Shown piece by piece: positions 2,995-24,634 of a stretch of DNA of 32,000 nucleotides. The notes under the pieces are model-generated. The model saw nothing but the letters and a program-made list of their open reading frames with translations, ran no database searches and was not told the DNA's origin. The stretch comes from an archaeon GW2011_AR10 (lineage in GTDB: Archaea > Iainarchaeota > Iainarchaeia > Iainarchaeales > GW2011-AR10), in assembly GCA_000830275.1 (NCBI GenBank), contig CP010424.1:120001-152000 (forward strand), in the 5' to 3' direction. Each line of letters opens with the position of its first letter. Position 1 is the first letter of the stretch. Position numbers and translations under genes: made by a program.

Positions 2995-3099
2995 TGGGCC
3001 CGGGCGGATTTGAACCGCCGACCCTTGGTGCTCTTACTTCCCCATTAACTCCGGAGAAGTTATAAGACCAATGCTCTGGCCAGGCTAAGCTACGGGCCC
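2995..3099 (-). tRNA. tRNA-Ile, anticodon UAU, with a 30-nt canonical 37/38 BHB intron
   Basis: The minus strand reads GGGCCCG-TA-GCTT-AGCCTGGCCA-GAGC-A-TTGGT-CTTATA|intron|C-ACCAA-GGGTC-GGCGG-TTCAAAT-CCGCC-CGGGCCC-A, a full cloverleaf. The anticodon TAT is at 3064-3062. The intron (3031-3060) forms hBHBh': a central 4-bp helix (CUUA/UAAG), 3-nt bulges UA|A and AG|C, and an outer 7-bp helix (CUUCUCC/GGGGAAG). The acceptor and D arm resemble archaeal tRNA-Ile. No CCA is encoded. Confidence 0.88.
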
Positions 3100-5435: not shown

Positions 5436-7076
5436 CTACATGTCCATTTCGCCCATGCCAGGAGGCATTCCGCCGTGGGGCATTGCCCCCGCCTTGCCTT
5501 TGCTGCTGCCAGCAATTATGTCATCAATCCTCAGCAGCATTTCTGCAACCTCTGAAGCAGAAGTCACTGCCTGAATTTTGACTCCAAGAGGCTCAATTAC
5601 TTTCAGTTTCTTCATGTCGTCAAGATATGCCTTGAATACGTTTACGCCTATGTACTTGCCGCCAGCGCTTGAGTGCTTTGAACGAAGACTGACAAGAGTG
5701 TCAATCGGGTCCATGCCTGCGGTTTCAGCCAGTGTTCTGGGTATCTCCTCAAGAGTTTCCGCAAAGCATTCAATTGCAAGCTGTTCCCTGCCGCCAACAG
5801 TTTTTGCGAACTCTCTTAGTTTCAGTGATACTTCTATTTCGCTTGCTCCTCCGCCTGCAACAACTTTGCCGTCTCTCAGTGCACTTGATGTTGAGCCTAT
5901 GGCGTCAACCACTGCGCGTTCTGCTTCGTCCACTACATGCTCTGAGCCGCCCCTCACAAGCAGTGAAACTGCTTTCGGGTTTTTGCAGCCTTCAACGAAC
6001 ACCATGTCATCGCCTGCAATCTTTCTTTCAACCACTGTGTTCGCTTTTCCAAGGTCTGAAGAACTCAAATCCTTTACCCTGCTTACAACCTTTCCGCCGG
6101 TTGCCCTTGCTAGTGCATTCATATCGGATTTCTTTACTCTGCGAACAGCCATGATTCCTTCCTTTGCCAGGAAGTGCTGTGCTATGTCATCAATTCCCTT
6201 CTGGCAGATTAGAACAGTTGCCCCTGAGTTCTTTACAGTTGCAACCATTTCTTTCAGCACTTTTTCCTCGTGGCCAAGGAGTGCCTCAAGCTCTTCAGGG
6301 GAAGAAATCTCAATCTTTGTGTCGGTTTCAGGTCCTTTGATTTCGAGGGCTGCATCCACCAACGCAATCCTGGCATTCTGGACCTTTTTCGGCATTCCCG
6401 AATGCACTACTTCCTTGTCAATGACAATGCCGTTTATCAGCTCCGAGTCAGACAGCGATGCCCCGACTTTTTTTTCAACCTTGATGTTGTCCTTGTCAAT
6501 AATTATTTTGCCGTTTTCTTCATCCGCAATCAATGTTACTGCCTTGACAACAAGTTTTGAGAGTTCCTCTGCGCCTTCAGTGCTTTTGCCAGTCATTGAA
6601 GTTAAGGCAATGCTTTCAAGCGTTTTAATGTCCTTGATGTCAACAGGGTCAGATAATTTCTCAAACAGCTCTTTTGTTTTCTTTGCTGCAATCCTGTAAC
6701 CCTTTATTATAACGCTGGGGTGAATCTCGTCATCGAGCAGCCTTTCAGCCCTTGCAAGCAGTCCGCCTGCAATTACTACTGCTGTTGTTGTGCCGTCTCC
6801 AACCTCGTCATCCTGCGTTTTTGCTATCTCCACCATCATTTTTCCAACCGGGTGGTCAATGCTCATCTCGCTCAAAATTGTTGCACCGTCGTTGGTGATG
6901 GTAACATCGCCCAAATCGTCAACAATCATTTTGTCCATTCCTTTTGGCCCAAGCGTGCTTTTAACAGCACTGGCCACTGCCTTGCCTATGAGAATGTTGA
7001 TTCTCTGCGCGTCCCTTCCTCTTGTTCTCCTCGTTCCCTCAGTCAAAAACACTACTGGTTGCTGTTGCTCAGCCAT
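5436..7076 (-). CDS. ths: Thermosome subunit (group II chaperonin, Cpn60/TCP-1 family)
   Basis: The 546-aa translation contains [37 protein letters not shown] and a C-terminal [12 protein letters not shown] tail. Confidence 0.97.
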
Positions 7077-7179
7077 AAAATACCAACCTCCTTTTCATCC
7101 AATCCAAAAAATAGTTGAATAATAAATTGCTGGATATAAGTGTTTAAAAGCCTTAGTGTTTTTTTGCTGGATATGGCTG

Positions 7180-7860
7180 TTAAGGGTTTCCTGTTTTTTC
7201 GAGTTTTTTTAGAACCTTTGAAAGCTCGTTTTTTTTCCTTCTGAGTTTAGTTTCTAGAATTATTATGTCTGCTCCAAGGTCCCTTAACCTGAATTCAGCA
7301 GTTGGGTTTTTTCCAGCCAATTTCTGTTCATTGTATTCTCTTGCACCTTTTTTTATTGTAATCGCGTCCTCCACTGATTTGATTTCTTTCCTAATGGCAG
7401 AAGCCCGGCTGGTTCTTTTCATTTCCATCGTTATTGGCTGTGAAAACCCTGCGCCCTGTGAGAACTGCAATGATTCCTCAGGAATAATGTGTGCGGCAAC
7501 AGCCTGCTTTCTAGTGGATTGAACAAACGCTGCGTAGCTTGCAGTAATTTCGATTGGGGCTCTTTTCGATAATTCATTGACAATTTCTAGATTTGAACGT
7601 TTTGGGTTTTCAATGAGCATTCTTATAATTTCTCCCTGAAGGCTCCCCGGCTTTGTACGTAGCGCTACTCTGTATCCTTTCTTGAAGCGCTCAATTCCAT
7701 TTTCTTTAAGCAGTGGTTTTCCTGTTTTTGCCACTGGTTTGCCTTCAACACCACTTACTTTGGCTTTTGGCTTTAGTGCTCTTGGCTGTTTTTCTTTTTT
7801 CTTTTGCCGTAGAGGCTGAACAGGCTTAAGCCGAAATCGTTTTGGGCCCATCAAAAACAA
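7180..7860 (-). CDS. Hypothetical basic protein (K/R-rich N-terminus, possible central wHTH, C-terminal coiled coil)
   Basis: The 226-aa ORF has coding-like composition. I recognise no family. The true start may be the second Met (MGPKRF). Confidence 0.55.
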   Translation of the reverse strand: MFLMGPKRFRLKPVQPLRQKKKEKQPRALKPKAKVSGVEGKPVAKTGKPLLKENGIERFKKGYRVALRTKPGSLQGEIIRMLIENPKRSNLEIVNELSKRAPIEITASYAAFVQSTRKQAVAAHIIPEESLQFSQGAGFSQPITMEMKRTSRASAIRKEIKSVEDAITIKKGAREYNEQKLAGKNPTAEFRLRDLGADIIILETKLRRKKNELSKVLKKLEKTGNP

Positions 7861-7920
7861 TAATAATGTGCTCCGAGAACTATTTAAACATTTTTTTGCT
7901 TTCCGCCTTTTTGTTCTATT

Positions 7921-8697
7921 TTATTTCACTATAATTATGTTTCCCCGGCCTTTCTTGAATTTCTTTACCTTGCCAGCATGCTCTAGTTCAGCTACAACAA
8001 GCGATGCCTTCGCCTCTCCATAAGGCAGTTTTTCTCGCAATTCCAGCTGGGTAAGCCTGCCGCCGTAGCGCTTTAACACTTCAAGGGCTTCTGTTGCTTC
8101 ACTGCTCAATGCATCCCCTGCTTCCTTGCCAGGCTGCCTTCCGCTTATCGGCTTTTCTGAATCGCTGCCAACAGCCATTTCGCTTTCTTTTACAGTTTTT
8201 GTTTCCGTAATTTTTTTTCTCCTGATTCTCGCGCCAGCAAAGAAAAGCGCAAGCGCAATGAGCACCAAAGCAAGGCCTGCTGTAATCGCCTTCAGGAATC
8301 CTGAGTCATTTGGTGTTTGTGTTCCATCAAAGTCTAAGCCAAGCTCGTTGAAGTCCTCGAACAAAAACTCATCCTCTCCCAGCGCAGGCAGCATTATCAA
8401 ATCCACCACAAAGTTGCCGTCACCTGATTCCAGTGTAATCGTTTCTATTGCCTCGTACTTGAGCTTGTTGTTCTCAAAGAACTGCGCGGTTAAAGTGTAA
8501 TTTCCCGGCGTGCTTATGCTGAAAGAGTAAGTTCCTTCAATTGCCACATCAGTCTGCTTTGGAGTTGTATTGATTTCCACAATAATGTTCTGCAGCGGTT
8601 CAAGCGTGTACCACTCAAATGCCGTGCCTGAAATTGTTGCAGCAAATGCTTGGTCTGCGAAAAGAAAAAGCAATAACAGGAGAGCCCCTGATTTCAT
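7921..8697 (-). CDS. Membrane-tethered winged-helix protein: signal peptide, beta-sandwich ectodomain, TM helix, cytoplasmic wHTH
   Basis: The N-terminus MKSGALLLLLFLFADQAFA looks like a signal peptide. A CarboxypepD_reg-like segment follows (ISGTAFEW...YSFSISTPGNYTLTAQF). The TM helix is ITAGLALVLIALALFFAGA followed by RIRRKK. The C-terminus is EVLKRYGGRLTQLELREKLPYGEAKASLVVAELEHAGKVKKFKKGRGNIIIVK (MarR/TrmB-like wHTH). Confidence 0.75.
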   Translation of the reverse strand: MKSGALLLLLFLFADQAFAATISGTAFEWYTLEPLQNIIVEINTTPKQTDVAIEGTYSFSISTPGNYTLTAQFFENNKLKYEAIETITLESGDGNFVVDLIMLPALGEDEFLFEDFNELGLDFDGTQTPNDSGFLKAITAGLALVLIALALFFAGARIRRKKITETKTVKESEMAVGSDSEKPISGRQPGKEAGDALSSEATEALEVLKRYGGRLTQLELREKLPYGEAKASLVVAELEHAGKVKKFKKGRGNIIIVK

Positions 8698-8797: not shown

Positions 8798-8873
8798 TTT
8801 CCGGGGCTGAAAGAATGCTTTTAAATTTGCGCTCAGCATCTGTTTCAGGATTTTCCTTTCAGGAGGTGTTTTA

Positions 8874-10007
8874 ATGGAGAAAAAAGTTTTAGAAAAGAAA
8901 AATAAAAGGCTTTTGCTGCCAGCGCTGTTAATTGCTTTCTTGCTGGTTTTTTCATCGTTTGCGTTAGCGCGACTGAACACTGAGACTGGCTTGCGTGTTC
9001 AAAGTAGGGCGGCAGTAGAGGCAAATGTTCTTAATTCAACTGCTGCAGTAAACAGCAATAGTGTTCTTAATGAAGCAGATGACGACAATGATGCGGCAGA
9101 TGATGGAGTTGATTCAGGTGCAGGCATTGGAGCCAGAATAAGGGCTGAAATTGAGGGCGCCAAGGAAAAATTCGAGCAGAACAGGGAACGCTACCTTGAA
9201 ATAAGGGCAAACTACGTTGAAGCAAAGAGCAGGGTTGCAGCAAGCATTCAGAGCTTTAATGCAGTGAGGGCCAGAATTCGTTCAGCTGCTCCTGAAGACA
9301 GAAACCAGCTTGCAGTGCAGCTGAGGGTTCATGCGAGGGAAACTCTGCTGAACCAAGTGAATGCAATTCTCAACCACCTTGAAGCAATAAAGGACAAAGA
9401 GGTTGCTCCAGACAACATAGATGAACTTACAGAGTTCTTTTCAGAGGTTGAAGCAAGTCTTGAAAATGAGGAAATAACGCAGGAGGAACTCATTGAAATA
9501 TCAAGCGACATCAGGGTGTTCTGGAGAGAGCACCGCCTTGGGCTAAAGAAGGGAGTTGGCTTGGCAATCAATGCAAGGATTCAGGCTCATTTCCAGAAAG
9601 CAGAAACTTTTTCTGAACGGCTTTCAGAAATAATTGACAGACTGGAAGCTGAAGGAAAAGATGTTTCACTGCTTGAAAGGGGCCTTGCAAAACTGGATTC
9701 AGACATCGAAAAATTCAGGAGCGCATACGCAAGGCTCAGAGAGCAGTACTCTGAAGCAGATTCAAGGCAGGAATTCAACGATGTTCTAACAAAAGGCCAC
9801 AGGCTGCTGAAGGCAATGAATGAGCAGCTGAAAAAGGATTTCAGGCTAATGAATGCTCTCTTCAAGGCAACAAGGGAACTCATTGTGTCAGAGGAAATAA
9901 GCGGCTCAACTTCGGCAGACATAGAAGCCGGGGTTGAATCATCTGAAACAGAAATAGAGTTCGATGCTGCCCTGGCTGAATTTGTTGAGGTGACTGCCGA
10001 TGAGTAG
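8874..10007 (+). CDS. Secreted or membrane-anchored alpha-helical coiled-coil protein, unknown function
   Basis: A strong ribosome-binding site AGGAGGTG (8861-8868) precedes the ATG. The N-terminal hydrophobic segment is LLLPALLIAFLLVFSSFALA. The rest is E/R/A/L-rich heptad-like sequence. Confidence 0.75.
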   Translation: MEKKVLEKKNKRLLLPALLIAFLLVFSSFALARLNTETGLRVQSRAAVEANVLNSTAAVNSNSVLNEADDDNDAADDGVDSGAGIGARIRAEIEGAKEKFEQNRERYLEIRANYVEAKSRVAASIQSFNAVRARIRSAAPEDRNQLAVQLRVHARETLLNQVNAILNHLEAIKDKEVAPDNIDELTEFFSEVEASLENEEITQEELIEISSDIRVFWREHRLGLKKGVGLAINARIQAHFQKAETFSERLSEIIDRLEAEGKDVSLLERGLAKLDSDIEKFRSAYARLREQYSEADSRQEFNDVLTKGHRLLKAMNEQLKKDFRLMNALFKATRELIVSEEISGSTSADIEAGVESSETEIEFDAALAEFVEVTADE

Positions 10008-12197: not shown

Positions 12198-12313
12198 CTA
12201 AACACCCCTTAAAGTGCATTTTTCCTCAACTTAACCCCAAAAATAGTAATACTAAAATCCTCTACCGTTCAGATTTTAAAGGCTACTATTGCGAATATAG
12301 TTGGGGTGATTTT

Positions 12314-12511
12314 TTGGCCAGAGTAATAATCCATGAAGATAAAAGCCCGGTTGAAGTCAGGGTTGGGGGAGAGAGCAGGTGGATTTGCCAGTGCGGCCTT
12401 TCAACTGCTAAGCCTTATTGCAGTGGCGCGCACAAAATGACTCAGGACGAGGAAGCAGGAAAACTCTACAAATACGAGAGCGGCAGAAGGACTGAAGTCA
12501 GAAGGCCTTAA
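12314..12511 (+). CDS. CDGSH-type iron-sulfur domain protein
   Basis: CQCGLSTAKPYCSGAHK fits C-x-C-x2-S-x3-P-x-C-[DS]-G-A-H. It has a TTG start with GGGGTGAT 5 nt upstream. Confidence 0.8.
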   Translation: MARVIIHEDKSPVEVRVGGESRWICQCGLSTAKPYCSGAHKMTQDEEAGKLYKYESGRRTEVRRP

Positions 12512-12526
12512 CCGCTTCTTCAGCTT

Positions 12527-12673
12527 TCAATTTTTTACCGCGTGCCTGATTATTTCAAGGTTGCATGACTTGTGAGCCTTGCACCATGCCTCACATTTTT
12601 CTGCCCAGCTTTTTTCTTTGTATTTCAGTTTACACTCTTCGCACTGGAAACCGCTCAATGTTTTTTTAACCAT
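12527..12673 (-). CDS. Unannotated 48-aa Cys-rich (putative zinc-binding) protein
   Basis: It is not in the ORF track (under 60 aa). The minus-strand translation is MVKKTLSGFQCEECKLKYKEKSWAEKCEAWCKAHKSCNLEIIRHAVKN, with CxxC, CxxxC and one further Cys. It lies immediately downstream of C/D sRNA copy 1 and its T7 run. Confidence 0.5.
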   Translation of the reverse strand: MVKKTLSGFQCEECKLKYKEKSWAEKCEAWCKAHKSCNLEIIRHAVKN

Positions 12674-12690
12674 TCAAATCATTTCTCTTT

Positions 12691-12697
12691 AAAAAAA
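12691..12697 (-). terminator. Oligo-T (T7) tract after C/D sRNA copy 1
   Basis: The minus strand reads GGCGTTTTTTTAAAG directly 3' of the sRNA terminal stem. Oligo-T tracts are the usual archaeal termination signal. Confidence 0.4.
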
Positions 12698-12704
12698 CGC
12701 CTTT

Positions 12705-12759
12705 TCAGTCCGCGCATCTTTCTTCACAGCTTGCGCTCCGAATCATCGTCAGTCATCAT
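12705..12759 (-). ncRNA. C/D-box sRNA (2'-O-methylation guide), copy 1
   Basis: The minus strand reads AUGAUGA (C) - CUGACGAUGAUU (12 nt) - CGGA (D') - GCGCAAGCU (9 nt) - GUGAAGA (C') - AAGAUGCGCGGA (12 nt) - CUGA (D). The core is 55 nt, both guides are exactly 12 nt, and GA dinucleotides are retained in all boxes. The short terminal stem is GCC/GGC. Confidence 0.7.
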
Positions 12760-12803
12760 CGGCAATAATAGATTTCCTAAATCATGTTTATCTTTGTTTC
12801 TTT

Positions 12804-14249
12804 TCAGCCATATCCATATTTTCCGATTGCCATTGATTTGAAGTTTTCAGGGTCTATTTCTTTTGTGAGAGACATTCTGGTTTCGAATAATTCTTTTGCG
12901 GTTAAATTAACACCGTCATAAGGCGGAGTGTAAAAGTTCCATAGTTCTGGATAATTGTCAATAGGGTATTTTGTGTTCATGTTCCTAAAAGTCGCTAAAG
13001 GAATAAGATTGAATATGCCGTAACGCGCAATTGTCCTGCCCTTGCTTTTGCTTTTCAACAGCAGCCTAATTTTTTTGTACTCTGAACGGATAGCAGCCAT
13101 GGTATTTTGATTTGCCTGAACGGGAAGTATCACACCAAAAGCGATTTCCGGAATTTGCTTTTTCGCAAGAGCAGAAATTATAGCATTCTGCACATCAAGC
13201 CCCTTCAGTTTATGATACTTTTCGCGCTCATCAAAAGTCTCTATAGGAAAGTATAACCTATAACAACCCTTTATTGCCCCACCAGTTTCTTCCCTAAAAA
13301 ATAATGCATTAAAGAGTTCCTCGTCAACCTTCCCATCACGAAAAAGCAGCCCTACCTCTAAGCCATTCGGGAACTCCCAGGCAAAACCAAGCCTTGCAAT
13401 TTCTTTAAACAACAGCATAACCTTTTTCCTCCCGTCAGGGGAAGCCGTTTGCAAAAGCAAATTGTCATCAACAATGTTTAGGGATTTTACCCCGCTTTCA
13501 CGATAAAACTCAAGGGAATTCACAGAGCTTTCAAGGTCAAGCGTATTGTATTTGCTCAGTCTCGATTCGCAAAAATCGCAGTCTCTCGGGCAGCCCTTCG
13601 TGAAATAAATGAAACCTATCGGAAAAGGAACGCCTTCAGGAACAGGCCCGTCATGGCTGTCCTTATACTCGTCAATATTCTCAAGCAAGCTGAAATCGGG
13701 CTTGCACAATTTTTTTAGAGGGTGAGGATAATTCCATACAATCTTCTGCTCGCTCCAGTCTTTATCCAATTCAACTGGGTTAAAGTCTTCAGTAAAAACC
13801 TTGTCAGCTCCGCATTGAAGGTAAAAACCAGGTCTTGCCTTGGCATCAGCACCGCCGACCATTATTTTTACATTAGGCTTTTTTGCTCTCGCATAGTGCA
13901 TGAACTCTTTCACAATAGAGGATTCAAAAGAAAAGTGGGTTGAAATGCCTATTACATCAGACCATTCGATAAGCTCTTCAGCCGAACTAAACGGTGCCCC
14001 AAACATGTAGCAATTTATTTTATAGCCCTCCCATTCGAATGTCCTGTAACGCTCTTTCCTGTCAGGCTCTTTTATTCGCAGGTCAAGAAGCCTTGCCTCA
14101 TACGTTGACTCGTTTTTTATTACCGAACCAACACGCAAAAGGCTAGCTGGCATGACCCTGTTGTAAACATTGTTCAGGAAAATAGGCGAGTCAAAGTAAC
14201 CTTTAAGCTCGAGGCCTAGGGCAGGAAGCTGGATAAGTCCAATGTTCAT
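12804..14249 (-). CDS. B12-binding-domain radical SAM enzyme (class B-like)
   Basis: The 481-aa ORF has an N-terminal Rossmann-like B12-binding-type domain (DVIGISTHFSFES...NVKIMVGGADAKARP). The CxxxCxxC cluster motif is FTKGCPRDCDFCES. The ATG overlaps the stop of the upstream MTase (ATGA at 14246-14249). Confidence 0.85.
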   Translation of the reverse strand: MNIGLIQLPALGLELKGYFDSPIFLNNVYNRVMPASLLRVGSVIKNESTYEARLLDLRIKEPDRKERYRTFEWEGYKINCYMFGAPFSSAEELIEWSDVIGISTHFSFESSIVKEFMHYARAKKPNVKIMVGGADAKARPGFYLQCGADKVFTEDFNPVELDKDWSEQKIVWNYPHPLKKLCKPDFSLLENIDEYKDSHDGPVPEGVPFPIGFIYFTKGCPRDCDFCESRLSKYNTLDLESSVNSLEFYRESGVKSLNIVDDNLLLQTASPDGRKKVMLLFKEIARLGFAWEFPNGLEVGLLFRDGKVDEELFNALFFREETGGAIKGCYRLYFPIETFDEREKYHKLKGLDVQNAIISALAKKQIPEIAFGVILPVQANQNTMAAIRSEYKKIRLLLKSKSKGRTIARYGIFNLIPLATFRNMNTKYPIDNYPELWNFYTPPYDGVNLTAKELFETRMSLTKEIDPENFKSMAIGKYGYG

Positions 14250-15031
14250 TTTTTCTTCACTAAGAATACGAAATCTCCAACGTTATTGTCACTGAAAATT
14301 TTCTCTTTGGGCCACACTTTTTTTACAGAAATAACTTCTAAATCGGCAGCAGCCAAGTGTTTCGTAAAAAGGCTGTAATGCGACTTCCATTCGTATTCTC
14401 TGTCCCTTTCATACTGCATTACCCGAGAAAGGAGCGATATTCGCTCATCTTTTATTTCATGATTATCAATGCAGTCGACTATTCTTTTTGCATAAAACTC
14501 AATGGCAGCAGAGTCCCTTTCTACTCTATTTGAATATTTTGGGATTATGTTCTCCATAAACACAACTATTCCGTCGTCTTTGAGATGGTTAAAAATGTTA
14601 TTCAAAAAATCAGGCTTGCGCTCATCCTCTATGTGGTGATATGCAGAACTAGCTATTATTACGTCAAACTTTCTTGGATGCCTGAAAAGAACAGCATCAT
14701 GATTTACCAACTCGAAGCGAGGGTCGGAACCGATTCTCTTCTTTGCATCATCAAGGTATTTCTGGCTTATGTCAACACCAACAAAGGACTCCAAACGATT
14801 TTTGAAATCAGAACTCAAAAAATCCAGTATCAATTCAGTGCCACAGCACACATCCAAAATAGATATTTTCCTTCCAACGCGCTTTGCGTAGTCAAGAAGG
14901 TGTTTAGAGCCTTGAATCAGCATTTCCCTTTCTCCGGGAATATCCTCCACTTTGTTATATAACTCAGCATTATCCTTGTACGTGAAATCAGCGGATATGC
15001 TGCCAGATACATAAAAATCTCTTGAATACAC
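14246..15031 (-). CDS. Class I SAM-dependent methyltransferase
   Basis: Motif I-like is ILDVCCGTELILDF, followed by VGVDIS (motif II region), FDVIIASSAYHHI and DGIVVFME. The track ORF runs to 15130, but its first 33 codons read like AT-rich promoter DNA. A GTG at 15031 preceded by GGGGG is the likelier start. Met69 is an alternative. Confidence 0.8.
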   Translation of the reverse strand: MYSRDFYVSGSISADFTYKDNAELYNKVEDIPGEREMLIQGSKHLLDYAKRVGRKISILDVCCGTELILDFLSSDFKNRLESFVGVDISQKYLDDAKKRIGSDPRFELVNHDAVLFRHPRKFDVIIASSAYHHIEDERKPDFLNNIFNHLKDDGIVVFMENIIPKYSNRVERDSAAIEFYAKRIVDCIDNHEIKDERISLLSRVMQYERDREYEWKSHYSLFTKHLAAADLEVISVKKVWPKEKIFSDNNVGDFVFLVKKK

Positions 15032-15140
15032 TAAAAACCCCCAATAATATAATTGGCCACGTCTACAAATATATAATTTTTGACCTAATTTTATAAAAAA
15101 ATAACAAAATTTATATTCTTTAATGTACATATTTTATAAT

Positions 15141-16136
15141 ATGAGGCATTTAGAGTCTGGGCTATTGGAACTTGATTCTGTTGACAAAAAAACCCTCCAT
15201 GAACTCGACTTAGACGCAAGAATGCCTATATCCAAGATAGCAAAAAATTTGCGCATTTCAAGGGTTGTTTCAGAATACAGGATTAGCAAAATGCAGGAAA
15301 CGGGCCTCATCAGGGCCTTTAGTTCAATGATGGATCCCTGCAAATTCGGTTTTTCAAGCTGGAAAGTCTACCTAAGATTCCACAACATGAAACAGGGAAT
15401 TGAAAAGAAAATGATTGACTATCTCGTTCAAAATAACAAAGTTTGGTGGGTCGTAAAATGTTATGGAAAATTTGACCTGCTTTACAGCGTGTTCGCAGAA
15501 AGCTTTTATGAGTTCAATGAAGTAATCAACAAATTTCACGAATTGTTTGGGGAATATATTCTTGACGAATCCATAAACAACCATCTTGAGCCACAATATT
15601 TCTCAAGAGGCTACTTAACGGAAAAGCCGCCAGAAGTTCTCTGTGAGCCATTCATGAAAAAACCAGTCAAAGAAAAAATTGATGAAACCGACATTAGTAT
15701 AATGAAAGAATTGGGAAAAAATTGCAGAATCCCCCTCACTGTGCTTGCAAGCAAACTGGGCATAACCCCTCGAATAGCAAGCTACAGAATAAAGGAATTA
15801 ATGGAGAAAAAAATAATCGTTTTCAACAGATTAAGCCTTGATGTGAATAAACTCGGAATGGACTTTTACAAAAGCTTACTATATCTGAAAAATATCGATG
15901 CCGAAAATTTTGAAAAGCTGGTTGCATATTGCAGGCAAAACAAGTTCATTAATGAATGCGTAAGATCTGTTGGGGAATGGCAAATGGAAATTGAGCTGGA
16001 AGTGAATGATTTCAAGCAATTCAATGAAATAATGGACGACATGAAAATAAATTTCCCAAACTTAATCATCAGAACTGAACCACTTTTATTGCACAAAGAA
16101 TACAAATCAGAATTCAATTTTTTGGATTATCTATAA
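15141..16136 (+). CDS. Fused tandem Lrp/AsnC-family transcriptional regulator (two HTH plus effector-domain units in one chain)
   Basis: There are two HTH_AsnC-like segments. The first is KTLHELDLDARMPISKIAKNLRISRVVSEYRISKMQETGLI. The second is ISIMKELGKNCRIPLTVLASKLGITPRIASYRIKELMEKKII. Each is followed by ~90 aa of RAM-domain-like sequence. The gene is divergent from the MTase-rSAM operon across a ~100-bp AT-rich region. The start could also be 15123. Confidence 0.8.
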   Translation: MRHLESGLLELDSVDKKTLHELDLDARMPISKIAKNLRISRVVSEYRISKMQETGLIRAFSSMMDPCKFGFSSWKVYLRFHNMKQGIEKKMIDYLVQNNKVWWVVKCYGKFDLLYSVFAESFYEFNEVINKFHELFGEYILDESINNHLEPQYFSRGYLTEKPPEVLCEPFMKKPVKEKIDETDISIMKELGKNCRIPLTVLASKLGITPRIASYRIKELMEKKIIVFNRLSLDVNKLGMDFYKSLLYLKNIDAENFEKLVAYCRQNKFINECVRSVGEWQMEIELEVNDFKQFNEIMDDMKINFPNLIIRTEPLLLHKEYKSEFNFLDYL

Positions 16137-16176
16137 TTTAATTCGCGAGGGTCCATAGAAAGTTTAAATGAAGGTA

Positions 16177-16196
16177 AGGTGAACATTCATGCTGTT
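16177..16196. repeat. 20-bp direct repeat AGGTGAACATTCATGCTGTT, copy A (flanks the TA module)
   Basis: It matches 16763-16782 perfectly, in the same orientation, 586 bp apart. Confidence 0.9.
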
Positions 16197-16207
16197 TATT
16201 GATGTGC

Positions 16208-16453
16208 TTATCGGTATACTTTCTCGCGGTGTTCGAACGTGTGAAATTCGATGCGGTTCTGTTTTGGTTCGAAAATCAACCGGAACGGCTTGATGCGAAT
16301 GCTTTTCTTTCCCGCTAGTTCGCGGCCCAAGAATTTTCCTTTAGCCGGATTAGACAAGACGCGTTCGACGGCTTTTTGGAGTTTTCGCATAGTGCCCTTG
16401 TCTTTGATTTTGGTCATCTGTTTTTTGAACTCGTCCGAAAAGACCGCGTCCAA
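16208..16453 (-). CDS. RelE/ParE-family type II toxin
   Basis: The 81-aa translation reads FKKQMTKIKDK....KAVERVLSNP..GKFLGRELAGKKSIRIKPFRLIFEP..NRIEFHTFEHREKVY, a typical RelE/ParE pattern. Confidence 0.8.
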   Translation of the reverse strand: MDAVFSDEFKKQMTKIKDKGTMRKLQKAVERVLSNPAKGKFLGRELAGKKSIRIKPFRLIFEPKQNRIEFHTFEHREKVYR

Positions 16454-16458
16454 AAAAA

Positions 16459-16680
16459 CTACCTTCTGAAGAATTCGTCCAGTTCTTTCTTGGAACCAAC
16501 CGTCGTGAAATGGCCTTCTTTGAAATCCTTTTCGCTTGCCTTGATGCTTTCCAGTAGGTTTTTATTGTTCAGTATTTCGGCGGTTTCAATCAGCGAATCC
16601 AACTCGTCACGCAACCGCTTGGCTTCTTCGATTTTCTTGGCTGGAATCAACACCGTTGCGCTGGTCGCCATTATCAACAC
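16459..16680 (-). CDS. Cognate antitoxin (RelB/Phd-like)
   Basis: It lies 5 nt upstream of the toxin. It contains IETAEILNNKNLLESIKASEKDFKEGHF, a pattern typical of archaeal antitoxins. The likely real start is ATG at 16671. Confidence 0.7.
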   Translation of the reverse strand: MLIMATSATVLIPAKKIEEAKRLRDELDSLIETAEILNNKNLLESIKASEKDFKEGHFTTVGSKKELDEFFRR

Positions 16681-16732
16681 CAGTAATACTGTGTGCCGTC
16701 CGGAATATAAGAATTCGCTTTTGGGAAATGTA

Positions 16733-16759
16733 TATTACGCTGAGCACTTCAGCGTAATA
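16733..16759. promoter_or_regulatory. Perfect hairpin/palindrome TATTACGCTGA-GCACT-TCAGCGTAATA upstream of the TA promoter (candidate operator)
   Basis: It has 11-bp arms and a 5-nt spacer. It lies ~25 nt upstream of a TTATATT TATA-like element that is itself ~25-30 nt from the antitoxin start. Confidence 0.4.
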
Positions 16760-16762
16760 GTC

Positions 16763-16782
16763 AGGTGAACATTCATGCTGTT
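16763..16782. repeat. 20-bp direct repeat AGGTGAACATTCATGCTGTT, copy B
   Basis: It matches 16177-16196 perfectly. Confidence 0.9.
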
Positions 16783-16826
16783 ATGTCCTCGGCCAGCTTT
16801 ATAGCTTTATTTTGATTTTTGCCTTT

Positions 16827-16881
16827 TCAGTCCGCCCATCTTTCTTCACAGCTTGCGCTCCGAATCATCGTCAGTCATCAT
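16827..16881 (-). ncRNA. C/D-box sRNA, copy 2 (one-nucleotide guide variant)
   Basis: It has the same C, D', C' and D boxes and spacing as copy 1. The D guide is AAGAUGGGCGGA (G instead of C). The terminal stem is a 7-bp UGCCUUU/AAAGGCA (16820-16826 with 16883-16889). AATTAAAAAC (16911-16920) is centred ~26 nt upstream of the stem, consistent with its own TATA box. Confidence 0.72.
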
Positions 16882-17061
16882 TAAAGGCAACATTAATTGT
16901 GCCCAAACAGGTTTTTAATTCTCACAGATTTTGTCCTGCGCAAAATGCCACAGAAGCCTGTTTTTCAGGGTTTTTAAGGCTTTTTCCTGATATTGCTTTT
17001 TAAATGTTTGTTGGTTGGATTGATATAATTCGTCATTGTTTGACGCTTAGGAGGCAAAATC

Positions 17062-17302: not shown

Positions 17303-17821
17303 TTAAGGTGTAATCCTTTCCAGCGAATAGTAGTTAATGTCGTTTTCTGCGTCAACAACTGCAATCAGTGCCTTTGTTTTCAGGTTCCCTGAAAGCCTCA
17401 CAATCCTGCTGAGTTCCGGCATTGAAAGCCTTTCATCATGCAATGCTACATGAATAACCCACTGTGTGTGCTCTTCTCCCGGCTTTTTGCCGCGGGGGTA
17501 AACGCGGAAGTCGAACCCAAATTTGAAGCCGGTTTTAATAACGTAGCCTCTGTCTCGTACATCCCTGAAAACAATGAATTTATTGTAAAAGTTTTTCTCC
17601 CGCTTTTCCGCTTGCTTGAGCAATTCCTCGAAAGAAACCTTTTCTCCGTTGCTGTCCTCTATTTCAATTTTGTCTTTCTCAAGCAAAAAAAGTGCTTCCC
17701 TCAGGTCAAGCACCAGCCTTGAGTTGTCACGCTCGCCGAAACCCTTCTGTATAAGCTGGTCCTTTACTTTTTTCTCTTCAACGAGAACCTTGTTTGCAGC
17801 AAGCAAAGCCATACTGTTCAC
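17303..17821 (-). CDS. endA: tRNA-splicing endonuclease (short, homotetramer-type size)
   Basis: The 172-aa translation contains VFRDVRDRGYVIKTGFKFGFDFRVYPRG....HTQWVIHV and SRIVRLSGNLKTKALIAVVD, the classical EndA catalytic-domain pattern. Confidence 0.9.
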   Translation of the reverse strand: MNSMALLAANKVLVEEKKVKDQLIQKGFGERDNSRLVLDLREALFLLEKDKIEIEDSNGEKVSFEELLKQAEKREKNFYNKFIVFRDVRDRGYVIKTGFKFGFDFRVYPRGKKPGEEHTQWVIHVALHDERLSMPELSRIVRLSGNLKTKALIAVVDAENDINYYSLERITP

Positions 17822-19130: not shown

Positions 19131-19262
19131 AATTCTTTACTTTAGATTTTTGGGGCAAAACTGATTCAGCATTAAATTCTTTACTTTAGATTTTTGGGGC
19201 AAAACTGATTCAGCATTAAATTCTTTACTTTAGATTTTTGGGGCAAAACTGATTCAGCATTA
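19131..19262. repeat. Perfect tandem repeat, 3 x 44 bp
   Basis: The unit AATTCTTTACTTTAGATTTTTGGGGCAAAACTGATTCAGCATTA occurs at 19131-19174, 19175-19218 and 19219-19262 with no mismatches. Each unit holds two small dyads, TTTTG-GGG-CAAAA and CTGA-T-TCAG. Confidence 0.97.
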
Positions 19263-19272
19263 AAGCAAAACA

Positions 19273-19303: not shown

Positions 19304-19816
19304 ATGATTGTGGTTGATGCCTCACCTCTTATATTGACAGCCAAAACAGAGTTGCTGGACATTTTCCTGCAATCAAAAGAAAAAGCAATTATTTCAGAAG
19401 AGGTTGAAAAAGAGGCAACAAAAAAAGATTCTTTTGACGCCATTCTCATAAAACAACGGATCAAGGAAAAGAAGATAACAGTAAAAAAGGTAAAAGGAAA
19501 AAAGCAGGTTGAAAAAATCGCAAAGGATTTCAAGCTGCAAAAAGGAGAAGCGGAAACAATAATCCTTTGCATTGAAAACAAATGCAAAGGAATCGCAACA
19601 GATGATTATAACGCAATGAAAGCATGCACAGTGGTTGGAATAAAATATATATCAACACTGGCAATATTAGTAAATCTCGCAAAAAAAAGGAAACTCAGCA
19701 AAGAAGAGGCAATCCTTAAAATAGAACAACTTGCCAAATATGGAAGATACTCAAAAGAAATTATTGATGACGTTAAAAACAGGATAGGTGGTGCAAAAAA
19801 TGCAGAAAATACTTAG
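19304..19816 (+). CDS. PIN-domain protein (DUF3368 / PIN_3-like, VapC-type toxin)
   Basis: It contains MIVVDASPLILTAKTELLDIFLQ...ISEEVEKE...GEAETIILCIE......ATDDYNA. The acidic residues sit at the expected PIN positions. Confidence 0.75.
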   Translation: MIVVDASPLILTAKTELLDIFLQSKEKAIISEEVEKEATKKDSFDAILIKQRIKEKKITVKKVKGKKQVEKIAKDFKLQKGEAETIILCIENKCKGIATDDYNAMKACTVVGIKYISTLAILVNLAKKRKLSKEEAILKIEQLAKYGRYSKEIIDDVKNRIGGAKNAENT

Positions 19817-20096
19817 CATGAGAATAGACGAAGATGACCTGGAATTTGTCAAACTTGAGGCAAAAGAGGAGAAAGCAGACAAAGCAAAAATAATACGCGA
19901 ACTCATAGAAAAAGGCAGGCTCCAAGTATCTATAGAACAATACAGCAAAGGAAAAATATCGCTCGGAAAAGCAGCTGAAAAAGCAGGAATAACAATAAGC
20001 GAAATGATGGATAAACTTGCAGAACTAGGCATACAAAACCCCATGACAAAAGAACAATACCTGCAAGGACTCAAAAACGCGGAAGAAATGCTATGA
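19800..20096 (+). CDS. UPF0175-family antitoxin-like protein
   Basis: IEQYSKGKISLGKAAEKAGITISEMMDKLAELGI matches the UPF0175 HTH signature. The ATG at 19800 is preceded by GGTGGTG. It overlaps the PIN gene by 17 nt. Confidence 0.7.
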   Translation: MQKILSMRIDEDDLEFVKLEAKEEKADKAKIIRELIEKGRLQVSIEQYSKGKISLGKAAEKAGITISEMMDKLAELGIQNPMTKEQYLQGLKNAEEML

Positions 20097-21466: not shown

Positions 21467-24400
21467 ATGAGTTCCAAAAGTTGGTTTCTGCTGGCAATCG
21501 TGCTGGTTTTTGCTTCAGCTGCAGCTGCTGCAGTTCCAACAGATTATCAGGGTTATTGGAAGTTTGATGACGGTTCTGGCTCAATAGCAAATGACTCTTC
21601 TGTGAATGGAAACGATGGGAATTTGTTTGGAAACCCTGTTTGGTCAACTGGAAAACTAAATGGCGCTTTACAGTTTGACGGTGTTGGCGATTACGTTAAT
21701 TTGGGCACAAGCAGTTTTGGCTTAACAAGCGGTTCTTCAACGCAGCTTTCAATTGTTTTCTGGGTTTATGTTGCTAATGTGGGCAACAACCAAACCCTAG
21801 TAACCCGCAGCTCTCTCGTTAAACCGTTTTTGGTTGAGTTTAATGGCGGCAGGCTTAGAACAGGAATTAGAACTGCTTCAGGTGCCAATTATTTGACTTC
21901 AAGTGCTGCCTTTCCCACAAACCAGTGGGTGCATGTTGCGTTGACTTATGATGGCAGCATGAGGCGAATTTACATTAATAGTGCTGTTGATGCTTCAGTT
22001 GCTTTGTCCGGCGCGGTTTCATTTGATGGAGGAGAAACAACAACTGTTGGCACAAGGCTTGGCAGCACACCACAATACCTTAATGGAACTCTGGATGAAC
22101 TGCAGATATACAACAGGGCATTAACTGGCACAGAAGTTTTGGATTTGTTTAACGCCGCAAGCCCTTCCCCTCCTGATACAACTCCTCCTTCTGTTTCTGT
22201 TACTTCTCCTTTGAGTGGTGCAACTGTTTCTGGTACTATTACTGTTTCTGCTAGTGCGAGTGATAATGTTGGTGTTTCTGGTGTTCAGTTTTTGGTTGAT
22301 GGCTCGAATCTCGGCACTGAGGATGTTTCTTCTCCTTATTCGGTTTCGTGGAACACTTCTTCTTTTGCCAATGGTTCGCACACTCTTACGGCTAGGGCGC
22401 GAGATGCTGCTGGCAACACAACCACTTCCTCTCCGGTTACGGTTAACGTGAGCAATGGTGCTCCGCCTCCTCCGAGTGGCACTTCGCATTATGTCACCCC
22501 TAATGGGGCCGGTTTTAGGAATGGCAATGATTGGAACAGTGCCTGGAGCATTTCAACAATCAGTTGGAGCAGTGTTTCCCCGGGGCACACTATTTATTTT
22601 GCTGGCGGGAATTATAATTCAGGAATAACCGTTCCGAAGGACGGTAGTTCGAGTGGCGGGAACATAACTCTCAAGAGGGCAACCCAATCAGAAACAGGGA
22701 GCGTTCCTGGATGGCAATCAGGTTTTGATTCAGTTGTTGAATTGCAGAATATTGTGTTGAGCGAAAGGAGCTATATCACTATTGATGGTGTTGTTGATAA
22801 TGGAATGAAAATAACTAGGGCTCCTTTGCCATTCTCACAGCAATTTGGGTCCAAGGTCATTGAATTTGGCGGGCCAGCTCCGGGTAGTACTACTGATATA
22901 ACATTGAAAAATCTTGAGGTTGTCGGCCTTGGCTATAACTTGTGCCAGGGCGGCTCGCTAATCGGCATTAGGGATGGGGGGCTTAGGCAACTGGACAATC
23001 TGCTGATTGATAATGTCAATTTCCATGATGAGATTCAGGTCGGATTGAGGTTAGAGGATCACACTAATGTTGTTCTGAGGAATTCGGATTTTTATAACAT
23101 GCAGTCAAACATAAGGGCTTGCCCGCCTTACCAGAACAATGGTTCCGGCGGAGGCATTCCCTGTTCTTCGGGTTGCCCAGCTGGAACTGCCTGTTATCAT
23201 GGCACTTTCTGTGCTGTGCTTAGGCCTTCGGGAAACCCCATGAGCTGCAGTGCAACCTCTCAATGCGGTTCTGCAAGCATGTTCAATTGCCTGAGCAACC
23301 AGTGTGTTTTGCTTGATAGTTTCAATGATTTCCAGCCCAAGTCATGCAGTGTCAGGGATGACTGTCCTGTCGGAAGCTTTAGCTGTGTTAATAACAGGTG
23401 TGTAGCCATAGACTTGTCTACTTCAAGTTCTAACCTTATTGCCTGCACTGCCGGCTCACAGTGCCCGGATGCGCAGTCGGATAACTGTGTTGATGGTTTT
23501 TGCAGGCCAGAGAACCCCCACGGAGAGCACATAGCCGCTTTTGGGGTGCTGAATGGGTTTGTGGTTGAGAATAACACATTCAGGAATCAGTATCTTGGGC
23601 CCTCGAGTCTTGGAGGCACTGGTATTTCATTTGCCGACACCACTGGAATAGTGGAAATAATCAATAATGTGTTTTTCCACATTAATAGTCCAGTATTCGA
23701 GAACTCTGATGGATTAGGCCCAGGTTTCCAATACATGAATATAGTTGGCAATACTTTTGTCGGGTACAGGATTCCTATATCTTATAACATCCCGATGAAA
23801 CTCTACAACAACATTTTTTGCAATGACGAGTCTCTTCATCCGAATTCAATTACTCGTTGGGCTCCGACCGATGCCTTGGAGTACGCTAACAACGCGTTCT
23901 GTGAAGATTCACGCTCAGTTCCCGGTGGGAATTACGATTACCCGCACGGCATTAATGGCGTGCTGATACCCCAATCAGAAATAGCTAACACGTTTGAGAA
24001 TATCATTGGCTTGGATTTCAGGTTAAAGCAGGGTTCCCTGCCAATTAATGCAGGTTTGAATATGGGTGCAGCATATGCATTTGATATCGATGGAACCCCT
24101 AGGCCACAGGGCTCAGCATGGGATATTGGGGCTTTCGAGTTTGCGAGTGGTGCTCCTGGTGATACTACTCCTCCAAGTGTTTCTGTTACTTCTCCTTTGA
24201 GTGGTGCAACTGTTTCTGGTACTATTGTGGTTTCTGCTAGTGCGAGTGATAATGTTGGGGTTAGTGGTGTACAATTCATGGTTGATGGTGTTAATCTTGG
24301 GGTTGAGGATGTTTCTTCTCCTTATTCGGTTTCGTGGAGCACTTCTTCTGTTGTGAATGGTTCGCATGCTTTGAGTGCTCGTGCTCGTGATGCTGCTGGC

Positions 24401-24634
24401 AACACTGCAACTGCTTCTGTAGTTGTGGACGTTAATAATGTTGTTGCGCCAGGCTGCAATGATTTGGTTCCTCTTCCTAGCGGTGATGGTGTTGTTAATG
24501 TGTTTGATTTGGTTTTCGTTGCCTCGAACATTTTTGCTTCGCCTCAGGACTTGGCGGCTGACCTTGATGGTGATGGTTTTGTTACTGTTGCTGACCTTGT
24601 TCTGATGGGGCAATCTATTGGTGAAACCTGCTGA
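21467..24634 (+). CDS. Large secreted multidomain surface protein: signal peptide, LamG/ConA-like, Ig-like, right-handed beta-helix with Cys-rich insert, Ig-like, dockerin-like
   Basis: The signal peptide is MSSKSWFLLAIVLVFASAAAAA. The LamG_3-like stretch is WKFDDGSGSIANDSSVNGNDGNLFGNPVW...LDELQIYNRALT. Two near-identical Ig-like modules read TTPPSVSVTSPLSGATVSG...ARARDAAGNT. Beta-helix-type repeats include NVVLRNSDFYN, VVENNTFRN, IINNVFFH, IVGNTFVG and LYNNIFCN. The C-terminus is SGDGVVNVFDLVFV...DLDGDGFVTVADLVLM (duplicated Ca-binding dockerin-type segments). Confidence 0.9.
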   Translation: MSSKSWFLLAIVLVFASAAAAAVPTDYQGYWKFDDGSGSIANDSSVNGNDGNLFGNPVWSTGKLNGALQFDGVGDYVNLGTSSFGLTSGSSTQLSIVFWVYVANVGNNQTLVTRSSLVKPFLVEFNGGRLRTGIRTASGANYLTSSAAFPTNQWVHVALTYDGSMRRIYINSAVDASVALSGAVSFDGGETTTVGTRLGSTPQYLNGTLDELQIYNRALTGTEVLDLFNAASPSPPDTTPPSVSVTSPLSGATVSGTITVSASASDNVGVSGVQFLVDGSNLGTEDVSSPYSVSWNTSSFANGSHTLTARARDAAGNTTTSSPVTVNVSNGAPPPPSGTSHYVTPNGAGFRNGNDWNSAWSISTISWSSVSPGHTIYFAGGNYNSGITVPKDGSSSGGNITLKRATQSETGSVPGWQSGFDSVVELQNIVLSERSYITIDGVVDNGMKITRAPLPFSQQFGSKVIEFGGPAPGSTTDITLKNLEVVGLGYNLCQGGSLIGIRDGGLRQLDNLLIDNVNFHDEIQVGLRLEDHTNVVLRNSDFYNMQSNIRACPPYQNNGSGGGIPCSSGCPAGTACYHGTFCAVLRPSGNPMSCSATSQCGSASMFNCLSNQCVLLDSFNDFQPKSCSVRDDCPVGSFSCVNNRCVAIDLSTSSSNLIACTAGSQCPDAQSDNCVDGFCRPENPHGEHIAAFGVLNGFVVENNTFRNQYLGPSSLGGTGISFADTTGIVEIINNVFFHINSPVFENSDGLGPGFQYMNIVGNTFVGYRIPISYNIPMKLYNNIFCNDESLHPNSITRWAPTDALEYANNAFCEDSRSVPGGNYDYPHGINGVLIPQSEIANTFENIIGLDFRLKQGSLPINAGLNMGAAYAFDIDGTPRPQGSAWDIGAFEFASGAPGDTTPPSVSVTSPLSGATVSGTIVVSASASDNVGVSGVQFMVDGVNLGVEDVSSPYSVSWSTSSVVNGSHALSARARDAAGNTATASVVVDVNNVVAPGCNDLVPLPSGDGVVNVFDLVFVASNIFASPQDLAADLDGDGFVTVADLVLMGQSIGETC
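22175..22419 (+). repeat. Intragenic direct repeat, copy 1 (Ig-like module)
   Basis: It aligns without gaps to 24161-24405 (offset 1986 bp). Perfectly identical blocks run up to 48 bp (22193-22240 = 24179-24226). Confidence 0.9.
24161..24405 (+). repeat. Intragenic direct repeat, copy 2 (Ig-like module)
   Basis: See copy 1. Confidence 0.9.

Follow-up and report, generated by a model that had tools for sequence, protein, structure and literature searches.

A conserved box C/D small RNA gene as a probable recurrent insertion hotspot for accessory cassettes in the archaeal genus Iainarchaeum

The stretch of DNA analysed here, 32,000 nucleotides (nt) from archaeon GW2011_AR10 (contig CP010424.1, positions 120,001 to 152,000; hereafter the window), carries a 4.1-kb block of accessory genes between two direct repeats that read as copies of a box C/D small RNA (sRNA) gene. 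Comparison with related loci leads us to propose that this conserved sRNA gene is probably a recurrent recombination and insertion hotspot in the genus Iainarchaeum. Small structured-RNA genes are classic landing sites for mobile DNA, and if our proposal is correct, the RNA-gene landing-site principle in archaea would extend to a second RNA class, the box C/D guide RNAs. It would also provide a concrete locus at which to watch gene flow in groundwater DPANN archaea (Candidatus Iainarchaeum, Diapherotrites), whose tiny genomes rely on exchange with their community; this flow may include a module with a close homologue named from the metagenome-assembled genome (MAG) of a candidate phyla radiation bacterium (Parcubacteria). 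Moreover, sRNA duplication and guide drift, which are known from thermophiles, would be tied to cassette acquisition, and the sRNA-cassette-sRNA layout offers a practical marker for accessory genes and toxin-antitoxin (TA) cargo in uncultured archaeal genomes.

A repeat search of the window returned the direct repeat at exactly 12699-12759 (copy 1) and 16821-16881 (copy 2), with a start-to-start spacing of 4122; the copies are 61 nt long and identical at 60/61 positions, in full agreement with what had been read from the sequence alone. No other dispersed non-coding direct repeat in the window is as long. Its sole mismatch, 12714 G versus 16836 C on the plus strand, falls at guide position 6 counted from the D box. 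Past the 61 base pairs (bp), local alignments of the flanks stayed inside the shuffle null, and an anchored alignment upstream of the copies gave a p of about 0.05, which was taken as non-significant. Short exact repeats can mislead assemblers, and one related locus (L030) shows a run of N after a duplicated sRNA 3' end, so that a chimeric join at the 61-bp repeat, with a cassette that belongs elsewhere, had to be considered. This assembly or binning artefact is excluded, since all 14 contigs of the species that were retrieved from NCBI MAG, JGI and ENA records show the arrangement of the window at 99.9-100% identity. Some of these contigs are 74-86 kb long, each of them keeps both sRNA copies together with their private G/C difference, and the radical S-adenosylmethionine (SAM) protein of the block is on record on a 1.24-Mb contig.

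The gene content of the block, as the sequence-only reading had described it, was recovered: a radical SAM enzyme, a methyltransferase, a tandem Lrp regulator, a ParE/RelE toxin and a small antitoxin lie inside the copies; beyond copy 1 come a 48-amino-acid (aa) Cys-rich protein (Cys48), a CDGSH protein and a histone-fold protein, and beyond copy 2 a mini-histone, endA and trpS. The same reading had taken the interior genes as accessory, and this is borne out by 35 species-level loci of relatives, which were anchored on TrpS and compared over the syntenic region of ±10 kb. The order mini-histone-endA-TrpS is conserved in most of them; the radical SAM, methyltransferase and tandem Lrp genes are absent from this region in 35/35, and the TA pair is found in only two (L015 and L016), at other positions. 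In these two loci the toxin is 82-85% and the antitoxin 71-74% identical to that of the window, compared with 71-72% for TrpS, so the toxin is more conserved than TrpS. The pair in L016 is flanked before and after by a repeat of its own that contains the operator palindrome, and L015 has a palindrome copy only downstream of the pair. In the window, a nested 23-bp direct repeat encloses exactly the TA pair. The block is thus composite, made up of the TA pair and a three-gene module (tandem Lrp, methyltransferase, radical SAM), and the idea that the cassette came in as one piece is not supported.

The three-gene module has its nearest counterparts elsewhere. The best matches of the radical SAM protein are 63% identical (locus L050) and 55% identical (a protein named as from a Parcubacteria MAG), and among the matches with a source name none was from Diapherotrites or Iainarchaeum outside its own 100% cluster. 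The Lrp-methyltransferase-radical SAM unit recurs in the same orientation in L050 and in L051-L053, the latter encoding the radical SAM homologue that is named in NCBI as from the Parcubacteria MAG. In all of these the methyltransferase is linked to the radical SAM gene (39-45% identity), and a tandem Lrp gene occupies the same divergent position in L050 (51% identity) and L051 (40%). Neither flanking repeats nor tRNA genes around the module were informative in L050 and L051. Horizontal acquisition of the three-gene module, together with a mobile TA pair, is the best explanation of these distributions.

The main result concerns the recurrence of the sRNA gene at the borders of other cassettes. 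Further sRNA copies, full or partial, lie near 12 of 47 distinct full-sRNA loci, and 12/13 of these further copies are on the same strand as the full sRNA; L055 and L132 are clear extra-copy cases below the E-value cut. The copy-flanked layout is seen in L173, L022, L025, L030, L036, L055, L065, L114, L120, L132, L168 and L172. The cargo between the copies is unrelated from locus to locus, consists mostly of TA pairs (Table 1), and its genes are mostly co-oriented with the sRNA.

Of the relatives examined at this locus, L173 is the one with the most similar endA (71% identity). It has the same macro-synteny as the window, with TrpS, endA, mini-histone, a variable block, the sRNA, a histone-fold gene and a RIO kinase. 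In the same miniHis-to-HF132 slot it carries a different 5.1-kb block with a P-type ATPase, NhaP and a CBS protein, and this block is bracketed by a 41-nt repeat, 83% identical, that spans the sRNA promoter, 5' stem and C box. Synteny breaks between close relatives also map to the sRNA: homology between L021 and L023 starts about 10 nt inside it, and homology between L036 and L031 stops at its 3' end. The sRNA has two sequence types, which are intermingled on the TrpS+endA tree, and L023 is a chimera of both. Four independent 5' fragments end right after CTGAC (L039, L173, L016 and the 23-bp repeat of the window), three C-box-less copies start at CTGAC (L114, L171 and L065), and a conserved element of ~45 nt with the consensus GTAATTAA...TTCATCTTTCGG...GATGGGCGGACTGAGGC runs into the sRNA 3' end and stands at the distal end of cassettes in six loci. 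The suggestion that an sRNA gene can mark an island boundary as tRNA genes do therefore finds its support in the 12/47 loci, the L173 slot and the synteny breaks.

Read on the minus strand, the repeat starts with a C box (AUGAUGA), a 12-nt guide (CUGACGAUGAUU), a D' box (CGGA), a 9-nt spacer and a C' box (GUGAAGA), and continues with a second 12-nt guide (AAGAUG[G/C]GCGGA), a D box (CUGA) and a terminal AAAGGC. Both guides are exactly 12 nt long, in keeping with the C-12-D' and C'-12-D spacing, and a GC/GCAA/GC hairpin lies inside the spacer between the D' and C' boxes. The D' box is CGGA here and mostly CUGA in the rest of the family, and the C' box differs from the consensus by one mismatch. 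AUGAUGA and CUGA are present in both copies and nearly invariant across an alignment of 42 sequences, for which homologues were gathered from metagenome contigs and the 35 species-level relatives. In more than 40 Iainarchaeum loci a conserved member of the family is present, and both guide cores vary little or not at all in the alignment. Across the family an 8-bp terminal stem covaries, with 97 double-change cells against 40 expected and a covariation score of 0.62 versus 0.20 in shuffles; 0/500 shuffles reached the observed value, and slid registers all scored lower. A TATA-like (A/T)TTAAAAA stretch is present at about -37 to -30 from the C box in most of 30 aligned homologues. Judged by these sequence features, the repeat reads as a canonical archaeal box C/D sRNA and is a predicted methylation guide. 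The claim that the repeat equals a complete C/D sRNA gene holds for the box anatomy and fails upstream of the C box: the repeat begins there, so that the promoter and the GCCUUU strand on the 5' side of the terminal stem lie outside it.

Database searches and target predictions add the following. At the gathering score, Rfam gave no match at the repeat, its sole match in the window being an intron-bearing tRNA elsewhere. In e-value mode the leading matches were all CD-box families on the minus strand, the best of them sR2 (RF01139; 32 bits versus a gathering score of 42, E 6.5e-6, full model length). Guide targets were sought on the ribosomal RNA (rRNA) of E. coli, which served as a proxy and is not the rRNA of this lineage. 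On this proxy the ancestral form of the D guide has its best site at 16S C1402 (9 bp with one G-U pair), a match that is non-significant because 55/300 shuffled guides equal it; the guide variant of copy 1 loses the site, and the D' guide has no significant target. Within about 0.76 Mb of collected sequence, guide targets amounted only to the antisense strands of the sRNA genes themselves, and an rRNA motif scan over 1.5 Mb of collected sequence found no rRNA. Mka sR114 and Sac sR122 have the identical guide core, and neither has a listed target in the supplement of the pan-archaeal guide paper.

The two copies of the window are not equivalent. In copy 2, GCCUUU pairs with AAAGGC over 6 bp, and its D guide sequence GAUGGGC agrees with that of the 40 homologues which represent other loci among the 42 aligned rows. 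GAUGCGC occurs in copy 1 only, and the G-to-C change adjoins the predicted methylation position. Because all other aligned members have GAUGGGC and copy 1 alone has GAUGCGC, the alignment points to copy 2 as the ancestral form and to copy 1 as the derived one. The 5' flank of copy 1, TTGCCG (UUGCCG in the RNA), corresponds to the stem type of other family members, and its 3' AAAGGC fits the 5' strand of copy 2 and does not pair with its own 5' flank in the family register. Copy 1 is therefore a mosaic: its 5' flank is family-typical, with the stem motif TTGCCG and, at the expected distance, a weak TATA-like stretch, and its body and 3' stem strand are those of copy 2. It is probably impaired or redundant.

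We favour homology-driven events and gene conversion for this window, because copy 1 is a mosaic and because the identity ends where the two genes cease to resemble each other. Accessory DNA would have accumulated downstream of the presumably working copy 2 in at least two steps, the TA pair being one and the three-gene module the other, and copy 1, as the second sRNA copy, would mark the far end of the block. We surmise that DNA entered or was exchanged via recombination within sRNA-derived sequence, either through single-crossover insertion of DNA bearing an sRNA or through exchange between two sRNA-derived repeats that already flanked the slot. The near-identity over 61 bp may then represent the last such exchange, or gene conversion confined to the stretch common to both copies, which would account for the abrupt loss of identity at the C box and at the 3' end. 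Copy 1 would have gained the guide mutation beside the predicted methylation position later. An early reading of the 61-bp identity as a possible integration scar is not supported: gene conversion between older paralogues accounts for the mosaic copy 1 no less well, and the identity could equally stem from such conversion.

The exact-edged direct repeats of att-like length around foreign genes could also have arisen by site-specific integration, with a tyrosine-recombinase-type enzyme, provided in trans or since lost, using the sRNA gene as the attachment site attB. The 61 bp would then be the att identity block, copy 2 attL and copy 1 attR. Consistent with this, the closest radical SAM module (L050) adjoins Phage_integrase and conjugation-type ATPase genes, the CTGAC junctions look as if they came from a common crossover core, and the ~45-nt terminal element closes cassettes in six loci, three times in L132. 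However, gene calls show no integrase in the covered part of the window region or at any of the sRNA loci examined, the junction in the window lies at the C box and not at CTGAC, and the extents of the repeats differ among loci. Copy 1 is moreover preceded by promoter-like and stem-like sequence of a different allele type, which a plain attP would not need, and no matching attP was found in IMG/VR. We thus consider site-specific integration unlikely, yet a serious rival.

Alternatively, copy 1 might be a recent, ordinary duplicate that settled behind the radical SAM operon and has nothing to do with the cassette, the genes having arrived independently. Duplicated, composite, transposed and miniature inverted-repeat transposable element (MITE)-like C/D sRNA genes are documented in Pyrobaculum (PMC6009581), and duplicate C/D sRNA genes in Methanopyrus kandleri (PMC4644070); besides, many archaeal sRNAs lie in 3' untranslated regions, and copy 1 sits 45 nt past a stop codon. 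Nevertheless, such a duplication leaves unexplained why the copies bracket exactly the lineage-specific genes, why the same-strand copy-cassette-copy layout is found at 12 other loci, why sRNA-derived repeats surround a different block in the same slot of L173, and why synteny breaks map to the sRNA. It appears to us quite improbable.

A further possibility, to which we would give only tentative credence, is an integron-like system, in which the promoter-bearing sRNA would be the platform and the sRNA-derived repeats (the CTGAC junction and the 45-nt element) the recombination sites. An unlinked recombinase, of the host or of a mobile element, would capture, stack and swap small, mostly co-oriented cassettes carrying toxin-antitoxin pairs, resistance genes and enzyme modules, and the 4.1-kb block of the window would be one array with a complete distal repeat. 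Integron cassette arrays and the pdif modules of Acinetobacter are functional analogies. They share with the present loci the arrays of small, mostly co-oriented, TA-rich cassettes, the short conserved repeat bounds and the promoter-bearing platform; here, in contrast, there is no intI beside the platform, and the repeat derives from an RNA gene. On inspection, the repeats contain neither the attC cores RYYYAAC and GTTRRRY, the attC model itself not being applied, nor Xer/dif-like arms. Membership among the integrons proper was consequently rejected, with no integrase adjacent to the sRNA in the loci examined and no attC cores by eye.

Several observations count against the proposal that the sRNA gene is a recurrent hotspot. 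The genes called over about 10 kb on either side of the cassette include no recombinase, transposase or integrase, the lack of an integrase having already been stated in the initial reading of the sequence, and no recombinase was seen in the other sRNA loci examined. The compositional signal of the interior is weak: the block had appeared richer in AT than its flanks, which is correct with a GC content of 0.393 versus 0.430 and 0.435, but the difference is only mild, and the tetranucleotide check that had been suggested places it 10th of 112 overlapping 4-kb windows (z about 1.6). DPANN loci of this kind are generally plastic, so that some variability near the sRNA is expected anyway. The boundaries of the repeats vary by locus (promoter to CTGAC, CTGAC to 3' end, 3' end only, or full), and one simple mechanism therefore does not cover all loci. 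Several of the partial copies were called from weak nhmmer scores (E 0.01-1) with additions by eye, and in IMG/VR both the sRNA and the conserved 3' element had only chance matches, in contigs of 55-57% GC.

Nor did the search for an empty site lend this proposal support. Among 5.8 billion public proteins there is no endA homologue between 71% and 100% identity, and an exact-protein look-up of Cys48 and the mini-histone returned only near-clonal contigs, all of them cassette-bearing. Likewise, no excised, deleted or circle-junction variant is present among the 14 species contigs, which, as near-identical sequences of one species, are silent on the existence of an empty site. The cassette is absent from the relatives, most of which have one sRNA copy; their TrpS is at most 76% identical and their downstream flank is different. 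The sequence-only reading had envisaged excision of the cassette by recombination between the copies; with the cassette in all 14 contigs and neither an empty site nor a circle junction found, the population as sampled is fixed for the block, which gives no sign of current mobility.

The locus can be compared with known hotspots. As in archaeal elements with SSV-, pNOB8-, pTN3- and pT26-2-type tyrosine recombinases that target tRNA genes, a small structured-RNA gene stands at the island boundary, direct repeats that are part of the RNA gene surround foreign DNA, and the upstream copy is intact with its own promoter, here a predicted one. In contrast to these elements, the target here is a box C/D sRNA gene, no integrase is present, and the cassettes are small (0.2-5 kb, one to five genes) with heterogeneous repeat boundaries. 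The locus therefore works like an RNA-gene insertion hotspot and is not an integrase-encoding integrative element: it has the flanking direct repeats of RNA-gene integrative elements and lacks an adjacent integrase or recombinase. In its sections on attachment sites, a recombinase review names for archaea nothing beyond tRNA genes, protein-coding genes and intergenic sites, and the terms sRNA, snoRNA and non-coding RNA appear nowhere in its text (PMC8371274). The C/D sRNAs of Pyrobaculum and Methanopyrus resemble those described here in their full-length duplicates with unrelated 5' flanks, half-gene recombinants and guide drift (PMC6009581; PMC4644070), and L023 is a recombinant chimera of that sort. 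Both papers treat duplication as sRNA evolution; neither describes duplicates on both sides of acquired protein-coding cassettes, and the word stem 'integrat' occurs in neither.

Bacteria offer a further parallel, in that sRNA, transfer-messenger RNA and 4.5S RNA genes are non-tRNA small RNA genes that act as att sites or insertion hotspots. The ryeA/ryeB region of Salmonella is reportedly one such hotspot. A small RNA gene of a bacterium, ffs, serves as the att site of phage phiEf11 (PMC12540744). These cases are bacterial, phage-sized and integrase-encoded, whereas ours concerns an archaeon with cassette-sized arrays in which no recombinase was seen.

Table 1. Features of the window and cargo of related sRNA loci. 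Locations without a locus handle are window positions.
Feature	Location	Strand	Remarks
Cys48, 48-aa Cys-rich protein	12527..12673	-	chromosomal flank directly downstream of copy 1
sRNA copy 1	12699..12759	-	C box to 3' end only; 45 nt past radical SAM stop, 25 nt before Cys48 start
B12-binding radical SAM enzyme, class-B-methylase-like, 481 aa	12804..14249	-	Pfam B12-binding and Radical_SAM
Class I SAM methyltransferase, 261 aa as publicly called	14246..15031	-	overlaps radical SAM start by 4 nt
Tandem Lrp/AsnC regulator (Lrp2), 337 aa	15123..16136	+	divergent from methyltransferase-radical SAM operon
Nested 23-bp direct repeat, right copy	16174..16196	-	just past toxin stop
ParE/RelE-fold toxin, 81 aa	16208..16453	-	Pfam ParE_toxin E 4e-7
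Antitoxin, 70-73 aa	16459..16680	-	weak DUF2683 match
Palindrome TATTACGCTGA-AGTGC-TCAGCGTAATA, 11-bp arms	16733..16759	-	likely TA operator
Nested 23-bp direct repeat, left copy	16760..16782	-	22/23; contains ATGTTCACCTGAC
sRNA copy 2, complete gene	16821..16888	-	5' stem GCCUUU 16883-16888; C box 16875-16881
sRNA copy 2, further parts	D guide 16831-16842; D box 16827-16830; 3' stem AAAGGC 16821-16826	-	
TATA-like box AATTAAAAAC	16911..16920	-	upstream of copy 2; spacer common with divergent mini-histone gene
Mini-histone, 58 aa	17062..17238	+	conserved flank, copy 2 side; then endA, trpS
MNT-HEPN pairs	L030, L055, L120		
RelE-like pair	L168		same pair after single sRNA in L047
DUF3368-PIN/UPF0175 pair	L114		
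Gene pair with weak, sub-threshold AbiEii match	L065		
AAA_14/DUF4143 ATPase	L022		
arsR + ACR3	L025		
Small secreted protein	L036		
Unknown proteins	L132, L172		
Insertion sequence transposase	L020		abuts partial sRNA copy
~45-nt element	L036 6156-6200; L020 5870-5914; L055 1360-1404; L120 1655-1701; L168 1030-1075		
~45-nt element, three sites	L132 1401-1449, 3617-3665, 4836-4884		

Domain searches refine the assignments in Table 1. The radical SAM protein reaches 32.9 bits for B12-binding, just over the cut-off of 32.1, and 26.4 bits for Radical_SAM, under the cut-off of 29.5; its CPRDCDFC segment is the CxxxCxxC core motif of radical SAM enzymes, and no NCBIfam equivalog was reached. By its domains and motif the gene product is a predicted class B (B12-binding) radical SAM methylase. 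The toxin scores 30.9 bits for ParE_toxin, over the curated cut-off of 23, and its gene lies 5 nt from that of the antitoxin; the pair has the make-up of a type II ParE/RelE toxin-antitoxin system with predicted toxicity. PADLOC gave the three-gene module no defence-system assignment beyond generic methyltransferase and helix-turn-helix matches. In L047 and L172, Cys48 homologues follow the sRNA in the same orientation. The longest open reading frame (ORF) of the methyltransferase (14246-15130, 294 aa) would run 8 nt past the opposite-strand Lrp2 start, and the public start at 15031 leaves a divergent promoter region of 91 nt. In L050 the radical SAM module stands next to Phage_integrase (tyrosine recombinase) and TraG/VirB4-like genes (6799-7947 and 12239-13617), and the sample of that locus, ERR15087771, also yields an Iainarchaeum-like contig, L175, with an endA of 69% identity.

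The nested repeat around the TA pair offers some further details. Its 13-mer ATGTTCACCTGAC resembles an sRNA 5' fragment, with a variant C box and the first nucleotides of the D' guide, a likeness that was noticed post hoc; the 13-mer recurs in the half copy of L025 and in the second copy of L172. In L016, an sRNA 5' fragment together with its promoter stands ahead of the homologous TA pair. A relic of the 3' element between the toxin gene and Lrp2 was also considered and rejected, its alignment score of 14 lying below the 95th percentile of the null (15). A toxin pseudogene polymorphism, suspected from differing gene calls, was dismissed as well, the 550-bp TA region being 100% identical in 14/14 contigs. 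Elsewhere in the window, a weak nhmmer match at 27844-27893 was treated as noise. As for the ~45-nt element, it can fold as a CATCT/AGATG hairpin that would sequester its guide-like part, and it has no C or C' box; a recombination site, a terminator and a decayed sRNA are candidate roles.

Minor variation was noted around the conserved flanks. In one of the species contigs (L009, ENA scaffold_7566), a short deletion affects the Cys48 region (window 12607-12643), and an insertion splits endA into ORFs of 82 and 139 aa (window 17461-17489). In L173, the TrpS beside endA (8810-9928) is only 32% identical to that of the window, compared with about 71% for endA and the mini-histone, which suggests displacement of TrpS by a different type. 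The intron-bearing tRNA gene that Rfam found in the window (2995-3099, minus strand; 57.5 bits, missed by ARAGORN) has a 31-nt intron after the anticodon loop, which fits with the presence of the endA gene at 17303-17821.

Other repeats of the window lie away from the cassette. A 264-nt repeat (22169-22432 and 24155-24418), 84% identical and 1986 bp apart, sits inside the gene for a 1055-aa Laminin_G_3/Big_7 surface protein and is probably an internal domain duplication; this surface-protein region is the part of the window that deviates most in tetranucleotide composition. Upstream of a DUF3368-PIN/UPF0175 TA pair (19304-20096), a perfect 44-bp unit stands in three tandem copies (19131-19264), and its copy number varies among population contigs that are otherwise 99.9-100% identical.

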